From Halomicronema hongdechloris C2206 (GTDB lineage Bacteria > Cyanobacteriota > Cyanobacteriia > Phormidesmidales > Phormidesmidaceae), in the NCBI RefSeq assembly GCF_002075285.3, contig NZ_CP021983.2, forward strand, positions 2,520,001-2,552,000: a DNA stretch of 32,000 nucleotides. The letters run 5' to 3'. The notes under the pieces are model-generated. The model was given only the letters and a program-made list of their open reading frames with translations. It was not told the origin of the DNA and searched no databases. Shown here one piece after another: positions 1-25,778 of this stretch (its first letter is position 1; the number at the start of each line of letters is the position of its first letter). A program made the translations under genes and the position numbers.

Positions 1-3000
1 AACAACGCTTTGGGACAAGCCGCAGCTTTGGGTTGCATAGGACTTGCCCACTTGCAACAAAGTCAATATCAAGAAGGCATTAAGCATCTTGAGGAGGCGT
101 TGCCAATCTTCAAACAAACTAGATACCGATTTGGAGAATGCCAAACTTTAAATGGTTTAGGTAATGCCTATACTCAGTTACAAGACTATCCAAGCGCCAT
201 TGATTATTTCCAGCAAGCACTGAAAATTGCGAAGGAAATTGGTAATTGTGTAGGAGAAGCAACAGCATTAAGTGGATTAGGTGATGCTTATCTACAACAT
301 GGTCAATATCAAGAAGCGATCGATGCTTTGCAGTCAATAATACCGATTTTGCCAGAAATTGGCGATCGCCAGTTGGAGCAGACCATATATATTAATTTGG
401 GCAAAGTCTATACTGAGCTTAAACAATTTAAGGCAGCAATCCAATCCTTTGAGAAAAGCTTAAAAATCACTCGAGAACTTGGTGCTCGGATAGAAGAACT
501 GCTTGCCTTAAGTAGCTTAAGCACTCTAAATTTTGAAGCTAAGAGATTTGAGAGCACAATAAAATATTCTAGGCAGATTTTAACTCTTTTAGACAAGAAG
601 AGCGATACTGAATTAAACCTCGAAAATGAAGTGAAACTCAACATTTTGTCAGAGGCAAAATACAATATCGGCACAGCTCATCTATATAAGCAAAAAGGCA
701 TAAGAACTGACAATTTAGAGTTAGCCATTCGCTATCTTAAAGAAGCCTTACAAGGATATTCTAGAGACAACCTTTCCTCTGAGTGGGCAAAGGCTCATAA
801 TAATCTTTCCATTGCATATTTGGATAGAATTCGAGGTGGTAAAGCAGAAAATATAGAGAATTCAATTAAGCACTCAAAAAACACCTTAGAAGTTTATACA
901 ATAGAGGAGTACCCTGAAGAATGGGCTAGAACTCAACTTAATTTAGGTCATGCTTACTTGGCAAGAATACTTGGTGAGAAAGTAGCTAATCTTCAAGAAT
1001 CAATCGGCTTCTGTCAGCGAGCTTTATCTGTTTTTACTCAGAAGGAATCTCCTGAGTATTGGGCGAAATCACAAAGTAACTTGGGAGCTGCCTATGCTAC
1101 TCTTGCTAAGCAAAGTAGTCTTAAGGTGGGTTTCCTAGATTATGTGAAGCAGGGTAAACCTAAAGTCACCTCAGAAAACTTTTCCAATTTTAGTACTAGC
1201 AACTATGAAGAAGTAAAGCATAAATTTTTAGAAAAAGCAATTGAAAGCTTTACGCTTGCTTTGCAATTTCTAGATGAGACAAACTCTCCCTTTGATTGGG
1301 CACAGGTTCAGATGAATTTAGGAGCTGCTTTCTTAGATAAGTCTGAAATCATAGAATTGAAAGAGAAAGATAGATTGATAGATCTAGCCATTAACTCTTT
1401 TGACTCTGCCCTAAGGGTCTTTACTCCTATTAAGACTCCTGAGAAGTGGGCAGAAGTGAACAATCACATGGCAGTTGCATATATCAAGAGACTGAAAAGT
1501 GAAACAGGAGATAAGGCTGAGATTTTTAGTAATTCAGTTGTTCGTTTCCAAGATACGCTACAAATTTATACGCGCGAGGCTTTTCCTCAAAAATATGCAG
1601 AGGCCCAACACAATCTTGGACGAGCCTATAAGTATGCTGAGAACTACAGTGCGGCATACGATGCATTCTATGAAGTCATTGAAACCTTAGACTATCTGCG
1701 TAGTGAGATAAGTCCCAAATCAGGCATACAAGAAGACAAGCAGAAGCTGACGGAAGCATGGAACCATGTTTACCAGGAGATGGTGCAGCTCTGTTTGAAG
1801 CTTGATAAGCCTATAGAGGCAATTGAATATGTTGAACGGAGTAAAACCAAGAGTCTTGTTGAGCTTCTTACAAATAAAGAAAATTACTACGAACATGAAA
1901 CATCTCTAAGTCGAATCCGTGATGTTGGAAGGATTTCCTTTGCTGATATTCAAGACCTGATTGACGATCAAACTGCGATCATCGAATGGTATATCGCAGA
2001 AAGACAAATTATTGCTTTCCTCATTACTCGCCAAGCTCCTCATCCAATTATCTGGAAATCTTCTTCCGAGAATTGGGCAACCTGGCTAGATGCTTACTTT
2101 ACTTATTCACTTGCTTATCAAATAGGAAAAGAAAAGAAAAAAGTAGAAGAGGGAAAAAGAGAAGCGCAGCTCTTAGGCGAAGGAGAGAAGGAACCTGAAA
2201 GCTTCCTTTATAGTTTTTATTCAGAGTTGGTCAAGCAATATAAGAAAGAGGAACAGTGGTCACCAGAGCTTGAAAACAGGTTTGGAAATTGGAAACAAAC
2301 CTTTGAGCATAAACTTAAAAATATCGCTAAGGCTCTACACATTGATGAGCTTTTAGAAAAAATTCCGCTAAGGTGTGACCAGTTAATCATGATTCCCAAT
2401 CGTTGGTTGCATCTGATTCCACTCCATGCTTTACCTATTTCCAATTCTCCTGAAGAAGATGAGACAGAACTATATCTTTTAGATAAATTCTCAGGTGGAA
2501 TTCGTTATGCACCAAGTTGTCAGTTGCTGAAACTGAGCCAGCATCAAGCTAGGCCTAACTTTGAAAAGTTCTTTGCATTCCATAATCCAGGCAGTGCCCT
2601 AGCTTTTTCCAACTTAGAAGTTGAAAATATCTGCTCATTTTTCTCTTCTTCTCAAGTCAGATTTCGGAAAACATCAACCAAATCTATACTTGACCTACAA
2701 GATGGCCTGCAAGATTCCCAAAAAAATCATGGCATTCATGAAGCTCACTGTGTTCACTTTGCCTGTCATGGCGAATATAATTTGGACTTTCCTTTAGAGT
2801 CAAAACTGATTTTGGCACAGGATGATAAGGCAAATGGAGATTTGACCTTAGAAGAAATCTTTGAGCTTCGCCTTGATCAATGTCGCCTAGTAACCCTTTC
2901 AGCCTGTGAAACAGGTGTTGTGATGGAGTTTTTCAGTAATAGTGATGAATACATTACTCTGGCGAGTGGTTTTTTATGTGCAGGTAGTTCTAGTGTTGTT

Positions 3001-3297
3001 AGTAGTCTTTGGACGGTTGATGATCTCGCAACAGCATTGTTGATGATTCGATTCTATGAAAACTTACAGACAGGTTGTGAAGTACCGTTTGCATTGAACC
3101 AAGCTCAGCAGTGGTTAAGAAACTTAACCATCAAAGATTTAAATAAATTACTGAAAAAATCACAGCAATCTTTGAGTCCAACAATCAGAATGCTTTTGAG
3201 GCAGCAGCAACGACAATGGTCTAATCAGTTTTCGGAGGATTATCGATTATTTCGTTCTCCCTATTATTGGGCAGCATTCTGTGCGATTGGTCAGTAA
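1..3297 (+). CDS. TPR-repeat CHAT-domain protein (caspase-like cysteine protease), 5'-partial
   Basis: The frame is open from nt 1 (track ORF 10-3297 merely starts at an internal TTG), so the N-terminus lies upstream of the window. The N-terminal two thirds carry ~40-aa TPR-type repeats (e.g. LNGLGNAYTQLQDYPSAIDYFQQALKIAKEIG; later units of the W-A-x-x-Q-x-N-L-G-x-A-Y type). The C-terminal ~300 aa carry the CHAT hallmarks HFACHGE (His codon 2767-2769) and LVTLSACETG (Cys codon 2905-2907), and end in the family-typical tail YYWAAFCAIGQ. Confidence 0.9.
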   Translation, partial: NNALGQAAALGCIGLAHLQQSQYQEGIKHLEEALPIFKQTRYRFGECQTLNGLGNAYTQLQDYPSAIDYFQQALKIAKEIGNCVGEATALSGLGDAYLQHGQYQEAIDALQSIIPILPEIGDRQLEQTIYINLGKVYTELKQFKAAIQSFEKSLKITRELGARIEELLALSSLSTLNFEAKRFESTIKYSRQILTLLDKKSDTELNLENEVKLNILSEAKYNIGTAHLYKQKGIRTDNLELAIRYLKEALQGYSRDNLSSEWAKAHNNLSIAYLDRIRGGKAENIENSIKHSKNTLEVYTIEEYPEEWARTQLNLGHAYLARILGEKVANLQESIGFCQRALSVFTQKESPEYWAKSQSNLGAAYATLAKQSSLKVGFLDYVKQGKPKVTSENFSNFSTSNYEEVKHKFLEKAIESFTLALQFLDETNSPFDWAQVQMNLGAAFLDKSEIIELKEKDRLIDLAINSFDSALRVFTPIKTPEKWAEVNNHMAVAYIKRLKSETGDKAEIFSNSVVRFQDTLQIYTREAFPQKYAEAQHNLGRAYKYAENYSAAYDAFYEVIETLDYLRSEISPKSGIQEDKQKLTEAWNHVYQEMVQLCLKLDKPIEAIEYVERSKTKSLVELLTNKENYYEHETSLSRIRDVGRISFADIQDLIDDQTAIIEWYIAERQIIAFLITRQAPHPIIWKSSSENWATWLDAYFTYSLAYQIGKEKKKVEEGKREAQLLGEGEKEPESFLYSFYSELVKQYKKEEQWSPELENRFGNWKQTFEHKLKNIAKALHIDELLEKIPLRCDQLIMIPNRWLHLIPLHALPISNSPEEDETELYLLDKFSGGIRYAPSCQLLKLSQHQARPNFEKFFAFHNPGSALAFSNLEVENICSFFSSSQVRFRKTSTKSILDLQDGLQDSQKNHGIHEAHCVHFACHGEYNLDFPLESKLILAQDDKANGDLTLEEIFELRLDQCRLVTLSACETGVVMEFFSNSDEYITLASGFLCAGSSSVVSSLWTVDDLATALLMIRFYENLQTGCEVPFALNQAQQWLRNLTIKDLNKLLKKSQQSLSPTIRMLLRQQQRQWSNQFSEDYRLFRSPYYWAAFCAIGQ

Positions 3298-3311
3298 GGG
3301 AGGAGATTGTT

Positions 3312-6137
3312 ATGAGCAAGCAACAGGACAATCCCCTCCCTTTTGTTGGTCGTAAGGCTAAAATCAATAAATTCCAGGAAAATCTTGAAAGACTTAACAA
3401 TAATAACCATGGCTGTCTTATTTTTAACATTAGTGGCCAAGCAGGTATAGGGAAGACAGAGTTATTGGAGCAGTTCTACAAACGGACAATAGATCAGAGA
3501 TTACCCTCAGCTAAAACGAATTTTCGACTACTAAATGATTCAATAATAAGTAAATATCCAAGAGAAATGCAAGTGGTGCCAGCGATAATGGCACAGTTAG
3601 CTGAGGAACTAGAAAAAAATAGACCTAATACCTTTCGAGAGTTTCAGAAACGTTATCAGATTTTCTGCAAATGTTTACAAAAACTAGAAGCTTCTCCAAA
3701 TGGAGTTCAATGGGATCAGTTGCTATCTAAAATTGCAATAAATACAGCAATAAGTGCAGCAGCTCAGCAATTTCCGTTTACTGAGTTACCACTTAGGGGA
3801 ATAGATAAGGATGAAATCGCGAAATTGCTAGAGAATTGGATGGGCAATATCCTGTCTAATCAGTATGAAGCACAATTGATGAGGGAACCTTTAAGGCTTC
3901 TATCTCCTTTATTCTTAAAGGGTTTGAATAAACTTTACCGAAATCATCCTATCGCATTATTCTTCGACGACTACGAACAAAATGACTACGGTGGGAATAC
4001 TTTCTCTCCAGATCAGTGGTTGCGAGATTTACTCTTCAAAAATCGCTATGGCCAAAGGCCAAAGAAATTGCTGATAGTAATAGCTGGACGCCAAGCTCTA
4101 AATCCTCTTTATTGGAGAAGTAATCGCGAGTCCAATCTATTACCTTTTACTCTTGAGCCATTTACAGAAGCGGAAGTACGAGAATATCTAAGTTACAAGG
4201 TAAAGGATTTAAGCTATGGAAAGGAAGCTCTTACCAGAAGAATACTGAATTATTCAGACGGTTTCCCTTTAATAGTTAGTATCTTAGCAGACCAAGCGCT
4301 CAATAATCATAATTCTGTTATTGATCCTTGTGAAGATGCAGTTCGCTATATTTTAAGTGATTTAGATCCTGTAAAAGATGACCACAAGAGACAACTTGCC
4401 GTAAGTGCTGCATTATCTCGACGTTTTGATAAAGAAACCATTGAAAAAATCATTGATTTTGACAATAAAATTGATGCATCTAAAGCTGATTTTGATTGGT
4501 TAATAAAGCGTTCTTTTATAGTCAAGATAGGATTATATCGGGGCTATCATCGGTCTGTGCGAAAGTTCATGCTGCGATATTTACAGCAGTTAAACCCGTC
4601 AAAATACTATGATTTGCATGAAAGGCTTGCTTCCCACTATAGTGCATTGATTTTAAGCCTTGATTTGAGTTGTAAAGAACAATACTCACATTCAACTTGG
4701 TGGCTTTATCGTTTAGAGTGGTTTTATCATAGATTTTGTCAAACTGACCAAAACCTTACGGACAAAAATTTTGAGATTTTCGAAGTTGCTTTAGAAGAGT
4801 TCTTTAAGGCATTTGATTTTCGGGTTTCAACAGCCACTCATTTAGCCAAAACCATCCGACAGGCAGGAGAAGAAAATCAAAGTTTAAGACTTAAACAGTT
4901 CGGAGAAGCATTAGTCGAACTTGTCAAACACTATCAAAGAGAGATTAAAATATTAATTCAAAAAAAGCATGAATATCGAAAAATCATACTATCTAGTATT
5001 TTGATCGGTCAGACATTCACTAATCCAGTCGAAATATCTGGTCACTGCAATAGAACAGTTAAGCATATTATAGAGGATTTAGAAGATTCTCAAAAAGTAA
5101 GATCAGTTCTAAGGATCGCTTTATCTAGAAACTTTGATTATGTCGCCTTTAGAGTGATTACTAAAGATAACATAGTTAGAGATGAAGAGGCTGAGTTTAT
5201 TTTTAGATGGTTAACACAACTTCCTTTTGTAACTCTGGTACCATCGATTTCATCATGCTGGGAATATAATCCGCTGATAAGAAAATTCATCCTTCGACGA
5301 TATCGAAAGCAATCCTTTAAAGTTTGCCGTTATTTGCATGCTAATCTTACCTCCCATTATAGTAATTTGGTTCAAGGTTTAGATTGGAATGATATAAATT
5401 CTTGGTCTAATTTGACTTGGCAAAACCATTGTTTAGAATGCCTCTATCATAGATTACACAGCGTGTACAGTACTTCTCAAGAGTTTGCAAATAATGATTT
5501 CGCCTTAGGAGAGTTCGCGAAAGCTTTGAAATTCCAACAATCGAGGGTATTTGAATGGGCTCAGACAATCCAGCAAGTAGGAGAAGAAAACATGGTTTCC
5601 AAGCTTAAAAACTGGGGAGAAAAGCTTGTTGAACTGATAGATTATCCCCAGAACTTAGAGCAGTATCGCAAGTTAGAAAAACTGATTTCCTCTAGTGATT
5701 TAACTAATGAAAATCATGTAAGCAGCATCATTAAAAAACTGAAAGAATACTTGGAACCGAGAAATCCGGACTTGGTTAGTGATATATGCTATGAAAATAA
5801 TATTATAGAAAGCCTTCTTGATGACCTGAGTAGAAATAGTCAAGGAGGAGGCTTTATTACTTCTAACTCTCTCTTAAATTCATCTATAGGTAGTATAGAA
5901 AATCCCATCGATCAGCGTATGATATGGAGATTAGAGTATCTCAAGAAAATACTCTCAAATAACAACCCTAAATCAAAATTGGAATTACAAAAAATTCTAG
6001 AAATAGAGCGAAAGGAATTTGGAAAAATGACGATGGGTTTGGCACAAGATACTTCAAGGGGAGATATTTCTGTATTCATTAGCTCACTTATGCTTGCCAT
6101 TGCCATATTGGCTTCTAATGAAATTGATCAGCATTAA
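3312..6137 (+). CDS. STAND-type P-loop NTPase (AAA_16/NB-ARC-like) with duplicated helical C-terminal region and hydrophobic tail
   Basis: Track ORF 3267-6137. I place the start at ATG 3312 (MSKQQDNPLPFVGR...), which lies 6 nt after a strong SD GGGAGGAG (3298-3305) and avoids overlap with the CHAT stop (3295-3297). Motifs: FVGR, Walker A GQAGIGKT (3435-3458), Walker B IALFFDDYE (3951-3977), IVIAGR, LEPFTEAEVREYL, SDGFPLIV. These are typical of STAND/AAA_16 ATPases. The remaining ~600 aa are helical and I recognise no catalytic effector domain. Confidence 0.8.
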   Translation: MSKQQDNPLPFVGRKAKINKFQENLERLNNNNHGCLIFNISGQAGIGKTELLEQFYKRTIDQRLPSAKTNFRLLNDSIISKYPREMQVVPAIMAQLAEELEKNRPNTFREFQKRYQIFCKCLQKLEASPNGVQWDQLLSKIAINTAISAAAQQFPFTELPLRGIDKDEIAKLLENWMGNILSNQYEAQLMREPLRLLSPLFLKGLNKLYRNHPIALFFDDYEQNDYGGNTFSPDQWLRDLLFKNRYGQRPKKLLIVIAGRQALNPLYWRSNRESNLLPFTLEPFTEAEVREYLSYKVKDLSYGKEALTRRILNYSDGFPLIVSILADQALNNHNSVIDPCEDAVRYILSDLDPVKDDHKRQLAVSAALSRRFDKETIEKIIDFDNKIDASKADFDWLIKRSFIVKIGLYRGYHRSVRKFMLRYLQQLNPSKYYDLHERLASHYSALILSLDLSCKEQYSHSTWWLYRLEWFYHRFCQTDQNLTDKNFEIFEVALEEFFKAFDFRVSTATHLAKTIRQAGEENQSLRLKQFGEALVELVKHYQREIKILIQKKHEYRKIILSSILIGQTFTNPVEISGHCNRTVKHIIEDLEDSQKVRSVLRIALSRNFDYVAFRVITKDNIVRDEEAEFIFRWLTQLPFVTLVPSISSCWEYNPLIRKFILRRYRKQSFKVCRYLHANLTSHYSNLVQGLDWNDINSWSNLTWQNHCLECLYHRLHSVYSTSQEFANNDFALGEFAKALKFQQSRVFEWAQTIQQVGEENMVSKLKNWGEKLVELIDYPQNLEQYRKLEKLISSSDLTNENHVSSIIKKLKEYLEPRNPDLVSDICYENNIIESLLDDLSRNSQGGGFITSNSLLNSSIGSIENPIDQRMIWRLEYLKKILSNNNPKSKLELQKILEIERKEFGKMTMGLAQDTSRGDISVFISSLMLAIAILASNEIDQH

Positions 6138-6336
6138 GCGGGAAGGCTCAATCATTTATAAGATGATGTGGCTTCTTCATAATCGTCAAAAGCCTTGATT
6201 GACAGTGGTTGTAGATACTCTATTCATCTTCAATTTGATTCGTCCCACCTACTTAATAATATGACTCCAAGCAAAATGTCTGGCTGCATTTCTATCTTAG
6301 GAGGAATGCAAGTTTCTGAGGGGAAAGACTTTTATT

Positions 6337-6870
6337 TTGTTTTTTTCATCGCGAAAAGCATTTTTTAAAATCGGCCAACAACTCTCACTACTAGGGTTGA
6401 TCGCAATGCCAATCACAAGCCATTTCTTCAAAACCCTCTTTAACGCCATCCGCGATAGTGACGCCGATCCACAGTTTGTCTATCCCTTCCTACAATCCCA
6501 CCTTGATCAACTCACCAATCAACTCCCACAACACCTGAGAAATTGGGCGATCGCTACCCTTCCCACCTTCGAACCAGAACAACAATGCGACACCGCTAAC
6601 GATATCGCCAACTTTAGCCTCCTCATGCGAGGCTTCCCCCTGGGAGGCAAAGCCACCAATGTCGAAATTGCGATCGCATTAAATCGAGCCCAAAGTTGGT
6701 TGCGGCAAGTGCGAAAAAGGGAGCTAGAAGAATTGCGAGAACGCTTGAGTTCAACAACTAGAATGATCTTGAGAAGACAGTTTTATCATTTGGTAGAGGA
6801 TGAGCCGTTTGTTGAGAGCCATTTTACTGGGCAGCATTTTGTGCGATCGGGCAGTGAGTACAATTTATGA
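6337..6870 (+). pseudogene. Internally deleted, frameshifted remnant of a second TPR-CHAT gene
   Basis: From M at 6406, MPITSHFFKTLFNAIRDSDADPQFVYPFLQSHLDQL...NFSLLMRGFPLGGKATNVEIAI resembles (from memory of the family) the N-terminal module that precedes the TPRs in cyanobacterial TPR/CHAT proteins. It is joined directly to ALNRAQSWLRQV...TRMILRRQ, which aligns with the last ~60 aa of the intact CHAT protein in this window (ALNQAQQWLRNL...TIRMLLRQQ). The tail YWAAFCAIGQ-stop is present but in another frame (TAC 6825 to TGA 6855-6857), so there is a frameshift near 6815-6825. The TPR array and catalytic core are absent. Confidence 0.6.
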
Positions 6871-6992
6871 ACCTTCAAATCCTTTTCAGCGAAAACCTGA
6901 TTGAGATCACTTTCTAGTTTTGTCGGTCGCGAAGCTAGAGCGAGTTTTTTTGAGCCTGATATGTCATTTAGCCAAGGAATATAAGTATAGCA

Positions 6993-7406
6993 ATGTCACC
7001 ATACGAAGAGAATATTTTAGATTTCTATAAAATCTACGAAGAGCAACCTGAACTCTTCACCGACGACGATAGGGCTTCATTTGAGGCTCTCAAAGCAACC
7101 TTTGCCGAAGATGACAGCATTGAAAAAATTTCAGATACGATCGCTCTTTGGTGTGAAGAGCATCCCAACATTCTCAATGCTCTTCTGGAGCTTCCCCCAA
7201 GCGAGACTAGTGAGAGAGGGGCAGGAGGTCGCTCAACTCGCCTGAATCCTAAAGAGGTTCTAGGACTGTTGGATAATATTACTCGCAGTGGGCCAGCAGG
7301 TCGCCCAACTCGCTTGGATCCTGAAGAGACCTCGGAATTGTTAGATAACATCGTTCGAGAAAGTGAAACAGATTCTGGCTCCTCCTCTTCTCCCCCACAA
7401 AAATGA
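6993..7406 (+). CDS. Small acidic protein (137 aa) with two tandem 24-aa repeats; no family recognised
   Basis: ATG-initiated ORF. Acidic N-terminal half, then the repeats GAGGRSTRLNPKEVLGLLDNITRS and GPAGRPTRLDPEETSELLDNIVRE, then a Ser/Pro-rich tail. Its stop overlaps the next start (ATGA at 7403-7406), which argues for a co-translated pair. The antisense ORF 7034-7351 is treated as spurious. Confidence 0.55.
   Translation: MSPYEENILDFYKIYEEQPELFTDDDRASFEALKATFAEDDSIEKISDTIALWCEEHPNILNALLELPPSETSERGAGGRSTRLNPKEVLGLLDNITRSGPAGRPTRLDPEETSELLDNIVRESETDSGSSSSPPQK
7218..7361 (+). repeat. 72-bp tandem duplication inside the 137-aa ORF (2 copies: 7218-7289, 7290-7361)
   Basis: ggggcaggaggtcgctcaactcgcctgaatcctaaagaggttctaggactgttggataatattactcgcagt versus gggccagcaggtcgcccaactcgcttggatcctgaagagacctcggaattgttagataacatcgttcgagaa. 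The copies are in frame and roughly three quarters identical by eye. Confidence 0.9.
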
Positions 7407-8854
7407 GCAAAACTTTCTCAACTCAGAAATTATGTAACTCCAGTCTGACACTTTACGCCTTCCATCTACGTGATAACCTTAGCGAAGGCCTTCGCCAGGT
7501 ATCATCCCAAGCCTCAAGACTATGGGAGAACCTGGTGTGGTTAGGCAGTACACTGAAAATTCCTGAACTGCAGTCTTTGAGACAAAAGCTGATCTGTTAT
7601 CAAGCAGGGCAGTATCAACCGACTGCAGAGGATCAGTTAGCTTTAGGTCAACAAAGCCTTTTGCCTGAAGAAGAAGATCGTATAAACTTTCAGTTAATTG
7701 CACAAGCCGACAGTGCAAGTCTAGAACTTAAGGGATTACTTTGCCCCTTTCGTCTCCACGATGCCTACGCAATCGACCTTACCCTGTTCTCCCCAACTCC
7801 CATCACTTTGGGGCAACTCAACCAGCTTAATCCCCAAGGACTCTTGCTACCTCCACATATCCAGGCATCCTTAGGACAAACCCTATTGTTCTATGCAGAA
7901 GTCGATGCCCTCGAGAAAGATGACCGTTCGATTGCAGATGCTTGCCTAGCTCAGTTGCTTCAAAATCAGGTAATGCCTGAATTCCTCGCTGAAGGTAAAC
8001 TCCTAGGTAGCTCAATCTTTGAATATGGTTCTCTGGTACGTGATCCAGCCCAGCAATACCATATCCTGGTTTGGCTCAACCACAATCAGCTTGCTCCAGA
8101 GGTGGATGAAGTTTCAGAACGATTGCTCTATCTCCTGAACTCTCGCCATAAAATTCTTTACGCTTATGACCAGTCTCGCTGGTGCGATCGCCAGGCTAAA
8201 CAGCTTTACAGCGACCTGGAACTAAACATTGTTCAAAGATTCAACCAGATTGCTCGGTCCCCAGACCACCTACAGCAGTTTCAAACATTACTGCGGAATC
8301 AACTACCCCAAACGGCATTTCAGTATGCTCAATACTTGAGGGACCTATCAGATCACGAGACTACAATTAACACTAATCTCCAAAACTACCGTCAACAACT
8401 GGCAAAACTCGCCCGATTGCCAGGCTGCGACCTAACTTTTTTGCAAGATTTCTTAGACCTCGCTGAAAACAAATATCTCAAACAAATCCAGGTTAACCAA
8501 AGCTACCTTACTCCTGGACAGGCGCTGTTCCAACAACTTACTGAAACTATTCGAGGTTTAGCTGAATTGGAACAGACTGAGAGCGATCGATGTTTAGAGA
8601 GAACCGTTCAAGTTCTAGGTGTTGGTCTTGCGACAGGAACCATTGTTGGGGCTGGCTATAGCTACACTGAGAAGCCTTTCAAGCCTCCTTTTTCGACCAA
8701 CACTATTCATCCGTTTGTTGCTTACTTGCTATGGAGCTTCACTGCTGCCTTTATCGCTGGGGTGATTGCATACTGGCTGACTCAGCTGAATTTGCTGGTA
8801 TGGTGGTCGAATTTACGTAATCGAGGGCAAGACGAGAAAACCTTTGAAGAATGA
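7403..8854 (+). CDS. Hypothetical 483-aa protein: N-terminal globular region, Gln/Leu-rich coiled-coil, two C-terminal TM helices
   Basis: Long ORF with an ATG start that overlaps the upstream stop. Predicted TM1 is VQVLGVGLATGTIVGAGYSY (about 8606-8665). Predicted TM2 is IHPFVAYLLWSFTAAFIAGVIAYWLTQL (about 8705-8790). A short charged tail follows. No catalytic motif or named family recognised. Confidence 0.7.
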   Translation: MSKTFSTQKLCNSSLTLYAFHLRDNLSEGLRQVSSQASRLWENLVWLGSTLKIPELQSLRQKLICYQAGQYQPTAEDQLALGQQSLLPEEEDRINFQLIAQADSASLELKGLLCPFRLHDAYAIDLTLFSPTPITLGQLNQLNPQGLLLPPHIQASLGQTLLFYAEVDALEKDDRSIADACLAQLLQNQVMPEFLAEGKLLGSSIFEYGSLVRDPAQQYHILVWLNHNQLAPEVDEVSERLLYLLNSRHKILYAYDQSRWCDRQAKQLYSDLELNIVQRFNQIARSPDHLQQFQTLLRNQLPQTAFQYAQYLRDLSDHETTINTNLQNYRQQLAKLARLPGCDLTFLQDFLDLAENKYLKQIQVNQSYLTPGQALFQQLTETIRGLAELEQTESDRCLERTVQVLGVGLATGTIVGAGYSYTEKPFKPPFSTNTIHPFVAYLLWSFTAAFIAGVIAYWLTQLNLLVWWSNLRNRGQDEKTFEE

Positions 8855-9081
8855 GCTTTGAAGCTACTATTTCGAGACTTTATCAGGGAGCAATAAGTCG
8901 GAGCATAGACTGGATATTATGTACTTAAGTAAAAATTATACTCTTCGGCCCAAGCGGCTTAAGAGATAGCGCTGCCTACTTATCCCAGCTCAGGATACCG
9001 AATACCTGTCAGAGAACCCTAAGACAATGACGCGTGGCTTCCCTGCTCTGGCTGCTAAGGTGATGGCAAGAATTCCTGCTC

Positions 9082-9615
9082 TTGGCCATGACCGTTTCAG
9101 GCATGACTTACTCTTGGATTGCCATGCTTCTGCTGCTCGGGATGGCTGGATGTGCGCTTGAGCCAGGGCCTAACTCAGCTGAGCCATCCAATACGACTGA
9201 CTCGTCTCCCACCTCAGCGACCACGGCTGAGCCAGCGACGGCGGCGGTGCTCTCCGTCGAGGTCAGCGGTGACCCGGGCGCCTACGAATTTACGGTCACC
9301 GTACGCAGTCCTGACACTGGCTGTGACCAGTATGCCGATTGGTGGGAAGTGCTGAGCGCAGAGGGGGAGTTACTCTACCGGCGCGTCTTACTACACAGCC
9401 ACGTGGATGAGCAACCCTTTACCCGCAGTGGCGGGCCGGTTGCAGTCTCACCGGAGCAAGTGGTGATCGTGCGATCGCACATGCATCCCAGTGGCTATGG
9501 AACCCAGGCCCAGGAAGGATCCGTGGCCACAGGGTTTAGGGCAGTGACCTTGCCCGCCGGGTTTGCCACCACCCTCGCCCAGCAAGACCCCCTACCCGCC
9601 GACTGCGCCTTTTGA
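9082..9615 (+). CDS. Putative lipoprotein, function unknown
   Basis: N-terminal signal peptide with a lipobox-like LLGMAGC, followed by a Ser/Thr/Pro/Ala-rich linker. The start is uncertain (TTG 9082, ATG 9088 or ATG 9103). Composition is GC-rich and host-like. Confidence 0.6.
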   Translation: MAMTVSGMTYSWIAMLLLLGMAGCALEPGPNSAEPSNTTDSSPTSATTAEPATAAVLSVEVSGDPGAYEFTVTVRSPDTGCDQYADWWEVLSAEGELLYRRVLLHSHVDEQPFTRSGGPVAVSPEQVVIVRSHMHPSGYGTQAQEGSVATGFRAVTLPAGFATTLAQQDPLPADCAF

Positions 9616-9687
9616 ATTGTCTGAGTCCTTTGCCGCTTCACACAGTTCTCCATGCCGCCAGAGCTCAGTCTCAAACGGCAGCTCGGT

Positions 9688-10182
9688 TTATAAACCAGCC
9701 CGCTTAAACGCTGGCAGCAGCGAGCGATCGGCCAAATAGGTGTGCAGCTCTTTGGAGCTCATGCGGCATAGATCTTTGGCGACTTCCTGCACGGTGAGCT
9801 GTTGCGGCAGGTTGGATGGCAGCACGTTGCGCAGAATGCCTAGAATTTGCGGTTCTGCAACCAAAATGAGCTGCCTGACTGGGTGCGTCTGACTGAGCTG
9901 AGTAATGCGGCTGGCGACAGACTGGGCGAAACGATATTCAAACGCCATCCTATGCTGTTTGCGATGGTCGTCATAGCTGTGAGCCTGACCCGAACCGCCG
10001 CGATTACGTCCCGCTTTCGTATTGGCCCACAATTCCTGGCCCGGCATTTCCTGTTCAGCATTGTGTAAGCTGTCACGCTCCACGAGATGCGGTCCGGCTT
10101 CGTATTCAGTGACCTCTGTGGGGTTGAGTGTTAAGAAGCGGGCTGTTGTGCCGTCAATAACCGCTACCAGATAGTGACCCAT
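9688..10182 (-). CDS. Host-attachment-protein family protein (PF10116-like)
   Basis: 164 aa. The layout is MGHYLVAVIDGTTARF..., then a central GRNRGGSGQAHSYDDH segment, then FAQSVASRI...LILVAEPQILGILR, then KDL...SSKELHTYL. This matches my recollection of the family. Confidence 0.65.
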   Translation of the reverse strand: MGHYLVAVIDGTTARFLTLNPTEVTEYEAGPHLVERDSLHNAEQEMPGQELWANTKAGRNRGGSGQAHSYDDHRKQHRMAFEYRFAQSVASRITQLSQTHPVRQLILVAEPQILGILRNVLPSNLPQQLTVQEVAKDLCRMSSKELHTYLADRSLLPAFKRAGL

Positions 10183-10399
10183 GAATCCCCTCTCGAAACC
10201 TTGTCTAATCTAATCGTAACGGGGTTGTGTAGGCCACATCACATCAGCGAACAAAGCTTAGGAGTCTAGCATTACCCGTTTATGCCCCCCATGACGCCTC
10301 GCCATCGGGTTGGCAATGACAGTTGGTAACTGGGGGGCAGCCACTCGACCCGTCACCTAAGAGAATAGGATGTGAGGACGTTTCTGGAGGAATCCGATC

Positions 10400-10876
10400 A
10401 TGACTCTTGTCCTGAGGTCACCGGCGTTTGCTGCCGGTGGGGAGATCCCCGTTGAATACACCTGCGAAGGGCGCGACATGTCGCCGCCGTTGACTTGGCA
10501 GGGCATCCCAGCAGGGACCCGCAGTTTAGTCCTGATCGTCGCCGATCCCGATGCTCCTGATCCGACTGCTCCCCAAATGACGTGGGTCCATTGGCTACTG
10601 TACAATTTGCCTCCCGAAACGGAGGGACTATCGGCAGGAATCACATCCCAAAACTTGCCAGCCGGCACCCGAGAAGGCATCAACGACTTCAAGCGCACTC
10701 GCTATGGTGGCCCGTGCCCTCCCATCGGACGTCATCGTTACTTCCACAAGCTCTATGCTCTAGATACAATGCTGGCAGACTTGGGTACGCCGACAAAATC
10801 CCAACTAGAGGCGGCAATGCCAGGACACATCTTGGCCCAGGCTGAACTCATGGGCACCTATGAGAAGACACGCTGA
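10400..10876 (+). CDS. YbhB/YbcL-family PEBP (Raf-kinase-inhibitor-like) protein
   Basis: Motifs: IPVEYTCEGRDMSPPLTW, LIVADPDAPDP, WVHWLLYNLP, GINDFKRTRYGGPCPPIGRHRYFHKLYALD. GGAGGA lies 8 nt upstream of the ATG. Confidence 0.9.
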   Translation: MTLVLRSPAFAAGGEIPVEYTCEGRDMSPPLTWQGIPAGTRSLVLIVADPDAPDPTAPQMTWVHWLLYNLPPETEGLSAGITSQNLPAGTREGINDFKRTRYGGPCPPIGRHRYFHKLYALDTMLADLGTPTKSQLEAAMPGHILAQAELMGTYEKTR

Positions 10877-10977
10877 TGGGGTTGAGCCCAATACCGACCT
10901 CAAACAACACGCTGATCAGGGCGATTGGGTACCCCTCAACCGGCTTCACCCGCAGGTCGAGGGCAACGTGAAAACAT

Positions 10978-11733
10978 TTATGGCCGTGTCAAAGGGGTTA
11001 GGTGCTGTTGCAACTGTTGGGCATTCTTAACAGCGTAACCGCCCCCATCGTTATTGAAATAGACGTAGGCATCGTAACCCAGGCTGAGCCAGTGACACAG
11101 GCGATCGCTCTCCGATTGCAACTGCTCTAACGGATAGCCCTGATCCATTGTGCCACCCGGCCCATGGCGTCGTAGGTAGAGAAAATCTGCCGTCGTCGGT
11201 GCCGCCACGGTTAACTGTGCCCCATCGGCCCAACAAAGCGCCACATTACTCTGCCGCAGCCGATCGAACATGGCCGGTACTAGCCAGGAGGCATGGCGCA
11301 CCTCCAAGACAACTTTGGGGGCAGATACCACGGATTGACTGTTGAGAATGTCTAAAAGCTGGGACAACCGCGGTAAGTCCAGCGCAAAATTGGGTGGCAA
11401 TTGCAACAGCAAAGGACCTAACTTAGACTCCAACAGGGCGACCCGCTGCAGGAAATTCAGCAGCAATTCTTCACAGGCGGCCAGGCGACGAGCATGGGTG
11501 ATCAGACGACTCACTTTCACCGCGAACGTAAAATCTGGGGGGGTCACTGTACGCCAGCGAGTCAGCATTTTTGTGGAGGGCAGGCGATAAAAGGTACTGT
11601 TGAGCTCGACGGTCCGAAACACCTGACTGTAGTGGGCCAACCATTGCCCAGAGGGCACGCCCTTGGGATAAAAGGTGGGATAGCGCCAATGCTTATAGCT
11701 AAAGCCGCTGGTGCCGATGATTGCTGTCGCCAT
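10978..11733 (-). CDS. DUF72 (YecE/UPF0759) family protein
   Basis: IGTSGFSYKHWRYPTFYP...YSQVFRTVELNSTFYRLPS...FAVKVSRLITH...LLQLPPNF are typical DUF72 motifs. Full-length ORF of 251 aa. Confidence 0.9.
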   Translation of the reverse strand: MATAIIGTSGFSYKHWRYPTFYPKGVPSGQWLAHYSQVFRTVELNSTFYRLPSTKMLTRWRTVTPPDFTFAVKVSRLITHARRLAACEELLLNFLQRVALLESKLGPLLLQLPPNFALDLPRLSQLLDILNSQSVVSAPKVVLEVRHASWLVPAMFDRLRQSNVALCWADGAQLTVAAPTTADFLYLRRHGPGGTMDQGYPLEQLQSESDRLCHWLSLGYDAYVYFNNDGGGYAVKNAQQLQQHLTPLTRP

Positions 11734-11845
11734 AGAGAAAAATTGGATGGGATCCAGAAATCAGTATATTTTGCTTATCCATTCAAGTGATTCTCAGACT
11801 CAGATGTCACCCTAAAAGCTAACCAAAGCCACACCTCCAGGTTTT

Positions 11846-14527
11846 ATGACGCCAGAACACGAACGCCTGCAAGCCGCCCAGGTCCCTGCAACCCCCTGGA
11901 AAAAATGGGGGCCTTACTTGAGCGAGCGCCAGTGGGGCACGGTACGAGAAGACTACAGTGCCAGCGGCGAAGCCTGGGACTATTTCTCCCATCAGCAGTC
12001 CCACTCGCGGGCCTATCGCTGGGGCGAAGACGGTATCGGTGGCATCTGCGATGATCAGCAATTGCTTTGTTTGGCTCTGGCCCTGTGGAACGGTCAGGAT
12101 CCGGTGCTAAAAGAGCGACTGTTTGGCCTCACCGGCAGCCAGGGCAACCACGGCGAAGACGTGAAGGAGTACTACTTTTACCTAGATAGCACCCCCACCC
12201 ACAGCTACCTGAAGTGTCTCTACAAGTATCCTCAAGCCGAGTATCCCTATGCTGACCTGGTGGCAGAAAACCAGCGGCGGGGCCGGGGCAGCATGGAATA
12301 TGAGCTGCTGGACACTGGCGTATTTGCTGAGAGCCGCTACTTCGATGTGTTCGTGGAGTATGCCAAAGCGGCCCCAGAGGACATCCTGATTCAGATCGAG
12401 GTGGTTAATCGGGGACCAGAGGCAGCCCCCCTACACCTGCTACCCACCCTGTGGTATCGCAATACCTGGTCTTGGGGCGAGGGCACTGAGAAACCTGTTC
12501 TCAAACTCGGCGATCCCGGCAATTGGGGCAGCACCATTGAAGCTGCCCATCCCCTCCTGGGACGCTACTGGCTCCATTGCGCTACTGCCGGCCCGCTGCC
12601 CCTGTACTTCACCGAGAACGAGACCAACATCGCCAAACTGTTTGAGGCCGAGAACTCGTCTCCCTACGTTAAGGACGGCATCCACGATGCGGTGATTCAC
12701 GGTCAGAAAGACGCCATAAATCCGCAGCAGATAGGGACGAAAGCAGCTGCCCACTATCGGCTGCATGTGGGGGCGGGAGAGGGTCAGACGGTGCGGCTGC
12801 GACTGACCCAAGAAGCTCATTTGCAGGCCCCCTTGGGTGACGACTTTGACACCGTCTTGCAAGCCCGGCGGCGAGAGGCGGATGACTTCTATGCTGCCCT
12901 CACCCCTTTTACTCTGACCGCCGACCAGCGATCGATTCAGCGCCAGGCCTTTGCCGGGATGCTGTGGAGCAAGCAGATGTACCGCTACGGGGTACAAGAT
13001 TGGCTCCGGGGTGATCCGACCATGCCGCCACCGCCCCCAGGCCACCAGCAGGGTCGCAATCGCCAGTGGCGACACCTCGATAGCGCCGACATCATTTCCA
13101 TGCCCGACACCTGGGAATACCCCTGGTTTGCCGCCTGGGATCTGGCTTTTCACTGTATTCCCCTGGCCATGGTCGATGCCGAGTTTGCCAAGCAGCAGCT
13201 CGATATCATGACCCGGGAGTGGTATATGCATCCCAACGGCCAGCTGCCGGCCTACGAGTGGGCCTTTGGGGATGTGAATCCGCCGGTACATGCCTGGGCC
13301 ACTTGGCGGGTCTACAAGATTGAGCAAAAGTTGACAGGCCAGGGAGATCGGATCTTCCTAGAGCGGGTCTTTCAAAAGCTGCTGCTGAACTTCACCTGGT
13401 GGGTAAACCGCAAGGATAGGGAAGGCAATAACGTGTTTGAAGGGGGCTTTTTGGGCCTCGACAACATTGGCGTGTTTGATCGCAGCGCCGAACTACCCAC
13501 GGGCGGCACCCTGGAGCAATCTGACAGCACCAGTTGGATGGCCATGTACTGCCTCAACATGTTGGAGATTGCCTTAGAACTGGCCCGGGACAACCCTGTG
13601 TATGAAGACATGGCCACCAAGTTCTTCGAGCACTTCATCTACATCGCCGATGCCATGAACCACATCGGTAACGACCGCACCCAGCTTTGGGATGAGGAAG
13701 ACGGCTTCTTCTACGATGTGTTGCATCTGCCAAATGGCAAGCGCATCCAGATGACGATTCGCTCCCTAGTGGGGCTGATTCCTCTGTTTGCGGTGATGAC
13801 CATCGAACCGGATTTGCTACGGCGCTTACCTAACTTCGCTGAACGCCTACAGTGGTTCATCCGCAACCGTCCCAACCTGAAGCGCAATGTCGCCTGCATG
13901 GAAACCGAGGGTGTCGGTGCCCGTCGTATGCTGGCCCTCTGCTATGCCACCATGGGTCGAGCCCGGCCTCAAGATAAGCTATGCCGCCTCTTAGAAAAGC
14001 TACTGGATGAATCCGAGTTCCTGAGTGACTACGGCATCCGCGCCCTCTCCAAACACCATGTCGAGCATCCTTATGTGTTCTACGCCAACGGCCAGGAGTA
14101 CCGGATAGACTACGAACCGGCTGAGTCTAGCAGCGGTCTGTTTGGTGGCAATTCTAATTGGCGGGGGCCGATCTGGTTTCCGGTGAATTATCTGATGATC
14201 GAGTCATTGCAGAAGTTTCATCACTACCTGGGCGATGACTATCGGGTGGAATGTCCGACAGGGTCGGGGCAGTGGATGACGCTGTGGCAAGTGGCCAGTG
14301 AGTTATCCCAGCGGCTGATGGCGATTTTTCTCCGCGACGGCAGTGGACGTCGCCCTGTCTATGGGGGCATTGCCCCGTTACAGACTGATCCTCACTGGCG
14401 AGGCTACATTCAGTTTCACGAGTACTTCCATGGTGACAACGGCGCCGGCCTGGGAGCCAGCCATCAAACCGGCTGGACTGGGCTGGTTGCCAAGCTGATT
14501 CAACAGCAGGCGGAATATAGTAGCTAG
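11846..14527 (+). CDS. GH63-like (MGH1-like) glucosidase
   Basis: 893 aa. The N-terminal signature is [32 protein letters not shown]...[15 protein letters not shown]...[44 protein letters not shown]. The C-terminal part looks like an (alpha/alpha)6-type region ([28 protein letters not shown]). Confidence 0.85.
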
Positions 14528-15087
14528 CAGGCAGTGAGCATGGCTTCTGGGGTCACCAACACATCGGTCTGGGATGATCGGCGGACGCTTTGAGGACATC
14601 CTGCTGATTAATCTGATTGCAGCACAGGATAGAGATAGGCCCCAACCTCGCCAACCTGGCCAAGGTGACAGACTGCCCGCTGCCTCGCCTGTTTCCCATG
14701 AAACTCGCTGTGTTAGATCGGACTTTCTCGCCAGCCCTGTCTGCCCCCCGTGACCTACGACCGCTGGATGAGGTGCGATCGCTTGACCGCAAGCTGGGAC
14801 AGCCCTTTCAACACATCTGGAAGACCATCTCAATTCACCCTAATCTCTCGTACTGACAGACTACTCGGACGATCCCGGGACGGTTTCAGGACAGAGGGCT
14901 CATCGGGAGCAGCTCTCTGGTATCCACTGCTAGGGCCGGCAATTGGCCGGCTGGGCTGGCTCTCGTGAGTCTATGGCATCTGCTTTGCCGCTGCCGATGT
15001 CGGCTTAGTGGCTGGCATAGGGGCTTTACCCTTGAGCGATACTGATCGTCTGTCACCCAATTCAGTATGATCATGCTCAAATAGTGC

Positions 15088-16455
15088 GTGGCAATTGATA
15101 TGCAATCCGACGAGGCTCTGGCCCTGCTGGATCACCTACTCCCCCACCATCCCCTGAGTGATCTGCAAGAAACAGTTTTCAGCCAGGTGTGGCAAGGTAA
15201 AACCTATGCTGAAATCGCCGATGCCTATGGCTACGAGCACAGCTACATTCGCGATGTGGGATTTCGTCTGTGGCAGATGATCTCGGAGGCCCTGGGGCAG
15301 AAAGTCTCCAAGAGCACCATCAAAGCCGTGCTCAGGCGCTATGCCCGCAACCATATGGCCCCGATGTCCTCGCCCCAGAGTGTCTCTGCGTCCCTGCCTC
15401 TGGCCTTAGAATTTCCCAATGGTCCGGTGCCCCTGCACTCGCCGTTATACATCGAGCGGCCCCCCATCGAGACCCAGGTGATGGCCGCTGTGCTCAAACC
15501 CGGCAGCCTGATTCGCCTCAAAGCTCCCCGGCAGATGGGGAAAACATCGTTGCTGCGGCGCATATTGGCCCATGCCCAACAGCACCAGCTGCGTTGCGTC
15601 AGCCTCAGTTTTCACCGGGCCGACCGGGCCATCTACACCGATCTAGATCGATTTCTGCGCTGGTTTTGTGCCAATATCAGCTATCAATTGGGGCTAGAGG
15701 CCGATCTGGACAGCTATTGGAACACCGACATCGGCAGTAAGGTCAGCTGCACCGCCTACCTGGAAGACCATGTACTCAGCCAGATCAGCGATGGGCTAGT
15801 GATTGCCCTGGATGAGCTGAATGACCTCTTCCAGTACCCGGAGTTGGCCTCGGAATTTCTACCGCTGCTGCGGTCTTGGTATGAAGACGGCCGCGAGTTG
15901 CCAGCTTGGCAGAAACTGCGGTGGGTGTTGGCCTATGCCACCGATGTGTATGTGCCGTTGCAGTTGAATCAGTCCCCGTTTAATGTGGGGCTTGCGATTA
16001 AGTTACCCTCGTTTTCCCTGGACCAGGTGCAGGAGCTGGCCCAGCGCCACGGTCTCACCTGGGCTGACGGTCAGGGGGGCCAAGAGCAATTGTTAACGTT
16101 GCTGCATATGGTCAGTTGCCGTCCAGGATTGGTGCGATTGGCCCTGTATGCCCTAGCCCAGAATGGCATGGGTGTAGACCAGTTAATCGAGGAAGCCCCT
16201 ACTCAATCGGGTATCTACAGTGATCATCTGCGGCACCTGCTGGCGGCCCTGTCACCGTTTCCAGGGCTGCAGGCCGCCTTTCGTCGGGTGATTCAGGCGG
16301 CGGAGCCGGTGTCTCTAGACCCCATTACCGCCTACCGCTTAGAGAGCCTGGGCCTGATTACGCTCGATAAAAATCAGGCCACTCCCAGCTGCGAGTTATA
16401 TCGCCACTATTTCCTCAATTTCTTGCCGGCAGACCAGCCCTCGACCCATGTATGA
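15088..16455 (+). CDS. AAA-like (PF14516/AAA_35-type) ATPase with N-terminal HTH module
   Basis: The N-terminus, LSDLQETVFSQVWQGKTYAEIADAYGYEHSYIRDVGFRLWQMISEALGQKVSKSTIKAVLRRY, looks like a sigma70-region-4/LuxR-like HTH, as seen at the N-termini of many cyanobacterial AAA-like/WD40 proteins. It is followed by LYIERPPIE, Walker A APRQMGKTS and Walker B LVIALDELNDL. The start is either GTG 15088 or ATG 15100. Confidence 0.8.
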   Translation: MAIDMQSDEALALLDHLLPHHPLSDLQETVFSQVWQGKTYAEIADAYGYEHSYIRDVGFRLWQMISEALGQKVSKSTIKAVLRRYARNHMAPMSSPQSVSASLPLALEFPNGPVPLHSPLYIERPPIETQVMAAVLKPGSLIRLKAPRQMGKTSLLRRILAHAQQHQLRCVSLSFHRADRAIYTDLDRFLRWFCANISYQLGLEADLDSYWNTDIGSKVSCTAYLEDHVLSQISDGLVIALDELNDLFQYPELASEFLPLLRSWYEDGRELPAWQKLRWVLAYATDVYVPLQLNQSPFNVGLAIKLPSFSLDQVQELAQRHGLTWADGQGGQEQLLTLLHMVSCRPGLVRLALYALAQNGMGVDQLIEEAPTQSGIYSDHLRHLLAALSPFPGLQAAFRRVIQAAEPVSLDPITAYRLESLGLITLDKNQATPSCELYRHYFLNFLPADQPSTHV

Positions 16456-17878: not shown

Positions 17879-17986
17879 AGTTCAGCTGCCGCCACAGCTC
17901 GGCTCTAAGCCAACTATCAGCCAATTTTCACCTCAGCCCCGGAAAGTCGAGGGACAATATTAAAAGATAGTTAACCGGAAGTCGTC

Positions 17987-18223
17987 ATGAACTTAACCAA
18001 GTTTGACCTCAATGTCATCCCCGGATATCGTCCTTGGCTAGAAGCGCAGATTCGCCAGCTGAGTATTAAAGCCCTCAGCACCAGTACCCTCACCTGTAAT
18101 GCCTGCGGCGAAATCGCCGGTACCTACATCATCGAATACCAGGGCCAAACTTTTCGCCTACCGGGGGAAGAAGCCTATGCCTTGCTGCAGTTTGTGGTGG
18201 GCAGCACCGCGACGACAGAATAG
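17987..18223 (+). CDS. Hypothetical 78-aa protein
   Basis: ATG ORF on the same strand, 108 nt downstream of the AAA-like pair. The SD is weak (GGAAG) and I recognise no motif. Coding status uncertain. Confidence 0.35.
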   Translation: MNLTKFDLNVIPGYRPWLEAQIRQLSIKALSTSTLTCNACGEIAGTYIIEYQGQTFRLPGEEAYALLQFVVGSTATTE

Positions 18224-18380
18224 TACGCCAAGGCAGACGTAGGAAGGAAGAAGGAAGAAGGAGAAATCCCTATCAATACAACCTTCTGCTCTAAGTAATA
18301 GAGGCGTTATTGCTGCCGTAGGGTCGTTGATCCAGCTGCGGCCAAAGGCCCAATTCGCTGCCGTCTGCCCTCGAGAGATG

Positions 18381-18422
18381 GCTAACAAGACATCGCTAAC
18401 AAGACATCGCTAACAAGACATC
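18381..18422. repeat. Perfect 14-bp tandem repeat x3 (GCTAACAAGACATC)
   Basis: Read directly: copies at 18381-18394, 18395-18408 and 18409-18422. Confidence 0.95.
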
Positions 18423-18460
18423 GGGCAATTGCAGCCGCTGCTACCCAGATGGGAGACCTA

Positions 18461-18613
18461 CTAAAATGTGCCAATCAGGACTAAGAGCGTGACCGAACAG
18501 ATAAACACTAGCCCGATAGCCAAAATAGCTAACCAAGGCTCGCGATTCTTGCGGTCGAGATAGTCATTTACCTGCTTATCGTGGGGCTCAGGTCGCCAAA
18601 TCATCGGTTCCAT
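18461..18613 (-). CDS. Candidate 50-aa single-pass membrane protein (not in ORF track, <60 aa)
   Basis: Hand translation of the minus strand gives MEPMIWRPEPHDKQVNDYLDRKNREPWLAILAIGLVFICSVTLLVLIGTF-stop (TAG 18463-18461). AAGAGGA lies 6 nt upstream of ATG 18613. The layout is a charged N-terminus followed by one ~22-aa hydrophobic helix. Confidence 0.4.
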   Translation of the reverse strand: MEPMIWRPEPHDKQVNDYLDRKNREPWLAILAIGLVFICSVTLLVLIGTF

Positions 18614-20188: not shown

Positions 20189-20197
20189 GGCCGGCGA

Positions 20198-20830: not shown

Positions 20831-20977
20831 AGGGCTAACTCGTATCGGGAATGGCCGGAGCAGTTGCTTGCTTAGTACTCCGCTTAGTACTCCAATGATA
20901 GAGCGCAGCGATCGTACCGCGAGTCATCTCTGGCCCAGAGGTGCGATCGCACATGCGCAATGACCCACAGGCTAAGG

Positions 20978-25774: not shown

Positions 25775-25778
25775 TTAA

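Follow-up and report, generated by a model that had tools for sequence, protein, structure and literature searches.

Multicellular cyanobacteria are rich in caspase-like proteases, whose targets and outputs are largely obscure. Bacterial gasdermins, which are paired with a caspase-like protease, and the type III-E Craspase, in which the TPR-CHAT protein Csx29 is paired with Csx30, represent protease-activated pore formers. At the level of gene organization, the caspase-dependent CATRA system has been defined computationally as a ternary conflict system of a TPR+caspase protein, CATASP, and a CATRA protein carrying an effector, and the examples listed in that account are actinobacterial with GT4 effectors (PMC8195603, section 15). 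Here, we analyzed a 32,000-nucleotide stretch of the Halomicronema hongdechloris C2206 chromosome (contig NZ_CP021983.2, positions 2,520,001 to 2,552,000, forward strand; hereafter the window), in which the gene at 7403-8854, the target of this study, encodes a protein of 483 amino acids (aa) that ends in a hairpin of two transmembrane (TM) helices. The target belongs to a common, unannotated family and to a variant of a computationally known system organization. Its cassette is most likely an immunity or programmed-death system typical of filamentous cyanobacteria, in which a module of about 400 aa carries a swappable C-terminal effector.

Other published systems share parts of this design. 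In the DO-GTPase systems, the constant multi-domain protein GAP1 ends in a calcineurin-type phosphoesterase, PNPase, trypsin, caspase, or 2-TM SLATT domain (PMC7159879). As presented in the sections of that paper on GAP1, these systems need DO-GTPases and are nearly absent from cyanobacteria. The same source describes bDLD1-iSTAND and MoxR-vWA modules as conflict systems, and a gene encoding bDLD1 in fusion with a peptidase of the trypsin type is mentioned beside iSTAND systems (PMC7159879; PMC8195603). In their text on these modules, the two papers do not name the N-terminal module of about 400 aa (N-module) that characterizes the family of the target.

We put at roughly 0.55 the probability that the target is the subunit that bears the effector in a caspase-type conflict cassette of three genes, the effector being a pore- or lesion-forming hairpin under protease control. 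The cassette context is much firmer than the pore part of this explanation. The target, its parts, and the small gene in front of it are located in the window as follows.

7403-8854, + strand: target gene, 483 aa, conserved N-module and C-terminal 2-TM hairpin (open reading frame (ORF), family alignments, AlphaFold2 model)
7403-8092, + strand: alpha/beta domain, residues 1-230, in which conservation within the family is highest, with W41, T127, and G158 invariant
8102-8602, + strand: three long Gln/Leu-rich helices, residues 234-400 (composition, alignment, AlphaFold2 models)
8603-8662, + strand: TM1, residues 401-420, a small-residue helix (hydropathy, alignment; low local confidence in the monomer model)
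8663-8710, + strand: Pro-rich loop, residues 421-436, conserved and with a predicted periplasmic or lumenal location (hairpin alignment)
8711-8851, + strand: TM2, residues 437-469, with conserved S445 and G453, followed by a cytoplasmic tail that is basic (hydropathy, alignment, charge)
6993-7406, + strand: gene of the small partner, 137 aa, with its stop overlapping the target start (ATGA, 7403-7406; tblastn, ORF scan, alignment A3)

A preliminary description of the window had reported a 483-aa ORF at 7403-8854 with a Gln/Leu-rich stretch and two hydrophobic helices split by a Pro-rich loop; the ORF check confirmed the frame, and composition, hydropathy, and coordinates agree with the remainder. 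Leu and Gln account for 17 and 10% of the protein, and Gln rises to 15% across residues 250-400. The hydrophobic segments comprise residues 401-420 (nt 8603-8662) and 434-469 (nt ~8702-8809), and the Pro-rich loop between the helices reads TEKPFKPPFSTNTIHP.

To call the target an orphan, as was done initially, proved wrong. A word-indexed search retrieved at least 364 relatives, and an exhaustive profile search covering 1.84 billion representatives returned 977 clusters (50% identity) at E ≤ 1e-3, 810 at E ≤ 1e-10, and 514 at E ≤ 1e-30. Counting one genome per species, a relative is encoded in 185 stretches. Filamentous cyanobacteria such as Nostoc, Microcoleus, Scytonema, Moorena, Trichodesmium, and Tolypothrix account for nearly all of these, and a few belong to Desulfobacteraceae. 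A family member, always annotated as 'hypothetical protein', is also present on 14 plasmids of cyanobacteria, 13 of which are mobilizable or conjugative. When the target, the small protein, the family consensus sequences, and upwards of 150 relatives were scanned against Pfam, NCBIfam, and PADLOC, no meaningful family emerged. Current domain and defense-system libraries thus miss the family, which is therefore invisible to standard annotation. With about 1,000 clusters at 50% identity, it provides a concrete candidate substrate or effector partner for the caspase-like proteases of these bacteria.

Alignment of the relatives shows that they have residues ~10-395 in common and diverge beyond this module. 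About half of the top 120 matches carry the 2-TM hairpin. The alternatives that start at about residue 395 are bacterial Death-like domain 1 (bDLD1), bDLD1+Trypsin_2, bDLD1+Metallophos, bDLD1+PNP_UDP_1, PNP_UDP_1, and CHAT, meaning that the hairpin sits where relatives hold trypsin, PNP, metallophosphatase, CHAT, or Death-like adaptor domains. A constant module followed by such an 'effector position' is a signature shared with other conflict systems, as these are portrayed in PMC7159879.

The hairpin itself is highly conserved. Among the 63 members of the 2-TM group, TM1 contains G406 in 61 and G, A, or S at positions 408, 410, 412, 413, 416, and 417; the loop contains P425 in 62 as well as conserved P429 and H436-P437-F438, and S445 and G453 are conserved in TM2. 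The C-terminal tail has a net positive charge in 59 of the 63 (mean +3.3), which predicts an N-in/C-in topology. In the alignment, the conservation of TM1, loop, and TM2 exceeds by far what hydrophobicity alone would need, and goes beyond the demands of anchoring. This speaks to the possibility that the protein is a membrane-tethered sensor or scaffold, in which the N-module would work for the CHAT system as its sensor or adaptor, the hairpin would only position it, for example for envelope events, and CHAT would be the true effector. Such a role would be in line with the invariance of the N-module, which is also found with only a bDLD1 adaptor at its C-terminus, and published systems of this class often act near the membrane, according to what PMC7159879 says of them. 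However, a mere anchor has no need for the near-invariant P425 and G406 or for the H-P-F motif, and in relatives enzymes occupy the position of the hairpin. We consider a pure scaffold rather unlikely.

To define the gene context, we used tblastn of window pieces against 78 loci and gene calls on representative contigs. This revealed a recurrent cassette, in which the first gene is large and its product combines an N-terminal domain with TPRs and CHAT, the second encodes 110-137 aa, and the third is the family member. In 58 of the 64 loci with enough flank, a CHAT-domain gene on the same strand has its end upstream at a distance below 1.5 kb, and the catalytic motifs H-F-S-C-H-G and L-S-A-C-E-T-G, which provide the His/Cys dyad, are conserved in 65-66 of 67 proteases. 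Of the co-occurrence with CHAT and STAND genes, named as a check in the preliminary description, the CHAT half is thus borne out, whereas STAND linkage had to be rejected as a general feature since it occurs in 1 of the 78 loci.

Relatives of the small partner were detected by tblastn in 39 loci, and ORFs of 100-165 aa end at or shortly before the homolog start in about 38. The small-protein family is characterized by an invariant W53, an R75-G-P/A-G-G motif, and an L-x-N-x-I/V-R/Q-Q-S tail. The R-G-P/A-G-G motif is a candidate position for cleavage by the TPR-CHAT protease. As in the window, the stop of the small gene frequently overlaps the start of the large gene; this ATGA overlap suggests translational coupling of the small gene and the target. 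The window copy of the small protein contains a duplicated 21-aa unit (7221-7283 and 7293-7355; AGGRSTRLNPKEVLGLLDNIT and PAGRPTRLDPEETSELLDNIV, 12/21 identical), which spans the conserved R-G-x-G-G and L-L-x-N-I motifs and is present once in relatives. TRF did not detect this duplication at the DNA level.

Protease, small partner, and effector carrier are genetically coupled and now and then fused. In Oscillatoria nigro-viridis PCC 7112 (locus L085, 4420-7611), the small protein forms the C-terminus of the TPR-CHAT protein (residues 952-1046; hhalign probability 97%, E 1e-10). The 1200-aa protein P0210 joins TPR and CHAT directly to the family module and hairpin, and P0113 and P0166 have a CHAT domain at the effector position of the family module. 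Standalone three-gene cassettes occur in Nostoc (L079), in O. nigro-viridis (L085), and on plasmids, where the cassette is kept at only ~27% identity in Nostoc sp. C052 (pC052_C, L087) and Tolypothrix PCC 7712 (L086). Both plasmids are conjugative or mobilizable, and the pC052_C cassette lies between IS630 and IS110 transposases. Restriction-modification genes, a PLD-like nuclease, a helicase, and insertion sequence (IS) elements are neighbors in other loci, and arrays of this kind often contain CHAT genes in fragments.

The phyletic range of the family, limited to filamentous or multicellular bacteria, would also suit a developmental or physiological module for cell death or differentiation in filamentous cyanobacteria instead of anti-phage defense. 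In addition, the CHAT-fused variant gives a weak match to the model of HetF, a CHAT protease in heterocyst formation. Yet the cassette is patchy, multi-copy, plasmid-borne, and IS-flanked, it differs from the host flank in base composition, and restriction-modification and other conflict genes lie nearby. A patchy, mobile, and compositionally foreign cassette bears the hallmarks of accessory conflict systems, and we regard a developmental function as improbable.

In the window, the genes upstream of the small gene are the following.

10-3297, + strand: paralogous TPR-CHAT protease gene, cut by the 5' edge of the window, with HFACHG (916) and SACETG (964) intact
3267-6137, + strand: STAND-type NTPase gene (AAA_16/NB-ARC), Walker A GQAGIGKT at residue 57, paired with the upstream TPR-CHAT gene
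6337-6870, + strand: pseudogene remnant of the cognate TPR-CHAT gene, 177 codons, reduced to the N-terminal region before the TPRs and the extreme C-terminus

The closest relative of the target, from Elainella saxicola (L001, 69% identity), is accompanied by the same CHAT+STAND pair and also keeps an intact 1288-aa TPR-CHAT gene ahead of the small and large genes. Residues 47-114 of the remnant match residues 129-196 of this Elainella TPR-CHAT protein, which belong to the pre-TPR region, and residues 86-163 match its extreme C-terminus (1202-1279). The junction lies at 'ATNVEIAIALNRAQ', and the canonical end YWAAFCAIGQ* is found at 6825-6857 in a different reading frame. Because N- and C-terminal pieces are joined and the canonical end is out of frame, 6337-6870 is a pseudogene, with an internal deletion of ~3.3 kb and a frameshift. 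The upstream TPR-CHAT protein, encoded about 4 kb upstream of the target, is 36% identical to the cognate-type proteases, which is approximately the identity of these proteases among themselves, and might therefore substitute for the lost protease. The STAND NTPase is probably a separate module, as it is paired with the upstream TPR-CHAT gene and syntenic only in Elainella.

The locus is a mosaic in base composition. GC content is 46% in the remnant, small, and target genes, 36-39% in the TPR-CHAT/STAND pair, and 56-62% in the host flank, and this mosaic (1-9000 versus 9000-23000) suggests that the two modules were acquired separately. Scans for tRNAs, repeats, promoters, and terminators showed no island boundary and no signals above chance. 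Directly downstream of the island, 9688-10182 on the - strand encodes a Host_attach/bacterial eRF1-like protein (baeRF family 12).

The loss of the cognate protease raises the question whether the window cassette is a decaying relic, non-functional since its TPR-CHAT gene was destroyed, with the target and small genes persisting as they are harmless without the protease. The deletion and frameshift in the remnant, the unusual duplication within the small gene, and the frequency of CHAT gene fragments in comparable arrays are all consistent with decay. Against it, the target and small ORFs are full length and retain every family-invariant residue, and an intact TPR-CHAT gene of the same family lies nearby. 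Decay of this copy is a possibility that we hold with some doubt, and it bears on the state of the window copy, not on the nature of the family.

In its organization, the cassette is comparable to CATRA. Both comprise one or more genes for TPR+caspase-superfamily peptidases, a small associated protein, and a large protein with N-terminal and helical parts and a variable C-terminal effector, as far as CATRA is set out in PMC8195603, and both are confined to bacteria of multicellular habit. The adjacent TPR+caspase gene of CATRA corresponds to the CHAT gene of the 58 loci and, in the window, to the remnant at 6337-6870 and the paralog at 10-3297. Unlike the listed CATRA examples, the family is cyanobacterial and carries 2-TM, bDLD1, trypsin, PNP, and metallophosphatase effectors. 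The window proteins, the consensus sequences, and over 150 relatives all went undetected by the Pfam models CATRA-N, CATRA-C, and CATASP and by the NCBIfam models. A trace of CATRA-C was seen in 3 of 63 members (best E 0.087) and was absent in divergent members and consensus, and CATRA-N never matched in the family scans. The small gene occupies the position equivalent to CATASP, with no match to Pfam CATASP in 21 members or the consensus. By analogy, the family may be considered organizationally equivalent to CATRA; homology is unproven.

The family resembles GAP1 in combining a constant protein with alternative C-terminal effectors of similar repertoire, including a 2-TM domain, to the extent that this repertoire is given in PMC7159879. 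No GTPase gene was found in the window or in L079, L081, and L083-L087, the neighborhoods examined contain no DO-GTPase, GASH, or FNIII genes, and the Pfam models GAP1-N, GAP1-M, and GAP1-C gave no match. We rejected GAP1 identity despite the similar effectors, given the lack of GTPases and the opposite phyletic pattern. The connection to bDLD1 systems is more direct in some variants. Members with bDLD1+trypsin or bDLD1+metallophosphatase adjoin iSTAND and MoxR-type AAA genes in L081 (10001-16961) and L084 (8001-12838), and in L081 the iSTAND protein carries bDLD1 and a vWA gene is also present. These variants tie the CHAT cassettes to the iSTAND ternary systems as outlined in PMC7159879. The window copy differs in having no bDLD1 and no iSTAND, MoxR, or vWA neighbors. 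By connecting TPR-CHAT cassettes to Death-like-domain and iSTAND systems, the bDLD1 variants bear on the proposed bacterial origins of apoptotic signaling.

We also compared the predicted structure of the target with known folds. An AlphaFold2 monomer model of the full-length protein, built on 63 homologs, had a pLDDT (predicted local distance difference test) of 86.5 and a pTM (predicted template modeling score) of 0.79. It contains an alpha/beta domain at residues 1-230, long helices at 234-277, 289-337, and 345-400, and another long helix at 437-479; the TM1 region is of low confidence. A separate model of residues 1-340 reached a pLDDT of 92.3 and a pTM of 0.90. The alpha/beta domain matches the mixed N-terminal globular domain of the preliminary description. 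Its 'coiled-coil' stands insofar as the helical region is predicted to consist of three long helices (234-400) in well-defined packing, whereas the models, including the confident one of residues 1-340, give no evidence of a canonical intermolecular coiled coil.

The fold search pointed to CorA/Mrs2 Mg2+ channels, among which CRISPR-associated CorA effectors exist. In a Foldseek search of the PDB with the full model, the top 20 matches (E 1.4e-4 to 7e-3) were all CorA chains from T. maritima and M. jannaschii, the sole significant full-length fold matches of the target, and their probability reached 1.0, but their TM-scores (template modeling scores) were 0.12-0.28 at a root-mean-square deviation (rmsd) of 22-25 Å. 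The target has the CorA-type overall topology, with a cytoplasmic alpha/beta domain, a long stalk helix that runs on into TM1, a conserved short loop on the outside, TM2, an N-in/C-in orientation, and a basic tail. When residues 1-340 were searched instead, a single CorA chain was left, at rank 3 (E 8e-3, probability 0.41, TM-score 0.12-0.13), and no other PDB fold gave a confident match to this part.

Sequence comparisons do not support a relationship to CorA either. In agreement with the earlier motif scan, the target contains no G[MVI]N (GMN) motif at any position; the motif occurs in the last 120 residues of 4 of 259 relatives, where it is incidental. Where CorA has GMN, the family hairpin loop has P425...P429...H436-P-F. 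The CorA profile hidden Markov model (HMM) matched none of 63 members at E ≤ 1, none of 59 divergent ones at E ≤ 0.1, and none of the consensus sequences at E ≤ 10, nor did it match 32 more members. Since the CorA signal is lost once stalk and TM helices are removed, and GMN and an HMM match are missing, the likeness to CorA is topological only. The resemblance to CorA stated in the preliminary description therefore holds for topology and fails for fold, motif, and HMM membership. We rejected membership in the CorA/MIT superfamily (Pfam PF01544), as GMN, profile HMM, and cytoplasmic fold all fail, and place the target outside the CorA family.

These data also bear on the idea that the target is a genuine CorA/Mrs2-type divalent cation channel for housekeeping or regulated Mg2+ transport. 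The fold matches and the shared topology would fit such a channel, and a phage 'Mg2+ transporter' is among the best matches in the viral fold library BFVD, none of which is significant. However, the TM-scores stay below 0.3 with an rmsd above 21 Å, relatives exchange the hairpin for soluble enzymes and then have no TM helices at all, and a channel leaves the CHAT linkage unexplained. The channel interpretation is already largely refuted, and we give it hardly any credence. The N-module has no clear relative among solved structures, and a sequence-profile search of the PDB likewise returned nothing, with spectrin as the best match (E 0.078).

Gasdermins and Craspase offer a mechanistic model for the cassette, since there, too, a TPR-CHAT or caspase-like protease is encoded beside a protein that is toxic on release or cleavage. 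They differ in that the PDB matches of the target include no sequence or fold likeness to Csx30 or gasdermin, a fold that we rejected on these grounds, and in that no CRISPR genes lie nearby. It is conceivable, if somewhat speculative, that the N-module is a new fold and a protease-gated delivery platform, a cyanobacterial counterpart of caspase/gasdermin or Craspase/Csx30 that is independent of CATRA, with the organization being convergent. In that case, one sensing-protease chassis could serve several outputs, namely a hairpin that forms pores, adaptors with Death-like domains, or enzymes that degrade nucleotides.

For the target as protease-controlled effector subunit, we propose the following course of events. 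The cytoplasmic N-module, probably together with the small protein, would keep the hairpin inactive. A trigger would be sensed via the TPR-CHAT protein, through its TPR or N-terminal regions, whereupon the protease would cleave or remodel the complex. The small-residue TM1 helices could then oligomerize to form a pore or membrane lesion, and the resulting depolarization would act as in abortive infection. The window copy would either rely on the paralogous TPR-CHAT protein or no longer be triggered. Proteolytic control, pore formation, and a role in defense are features that we infer for the target, and the protease-activated lesion is an analogy to gasdermins or Craspase/Csx30. Accounts of the target as a membrane effector of a conflict system, as first put forward in the preliminary description, are strengthened in the conflict context, through the effector position and the CHAT-linked loci, while pore activity is only inferred.

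Several observations weigh against this explanation. The target belongs to no Pfam or NCBIfam family, and PADLOC-DB v2 yielded for it only a JetC coiled-coil match (E 0.0027) and none for the small protein. TM1 of the window copy is moderately hydrophobic (Kyte-Doolittle 1.24) and modeled at low confidence. The HMMs SLATT_1 to SLATT_5 matched none of the family members scanned, Saf_2TM matched a single divergent member (P0227; E 0.0039, 17.5 bits versus a curated cutoff of 29.5 bits), and the consensus TM hairpins matched neither SLATT nor Saf_2TM. Cleavage of the target is putative, and the role of the family is read from sequences and models. Finally, the cognate protease of the window is a pseudogene and the target ORF is intact, and an intact target beside a dead protease is no less compatible with a non-toxic or inactive state than with a primed toxin.

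The alignment also helps to define the start of the target gene. Conservation throughout the family extends over residues 10-44, where the motif NPSLTLYAFHLR lies, and the correct start is therefore the ATG at 7403. The public NCBI model of the identical H. hongdechloris protein (P0001) has 439 aa. Given the conserved N-terminal residues, this model is too short, beginning 44 codons late and omitting 7403-7534 of the window.

Further downstream, two adjacent genes at 15088-17878 encode AAA_35 (PF14516) ATPase-like proteins, with matches at E 3e-134 and E 8e-27. A second low-GC block (32-45%) at 23715-29018 encodes a Wzt-type ABC ATPase, an FkbM methyltransferase, and glycosyltransferases, and is probably a horizontally acquired polysaccharide cluster. 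One of its glycosyltransferases gives a weak 'GT4-conflict' match.

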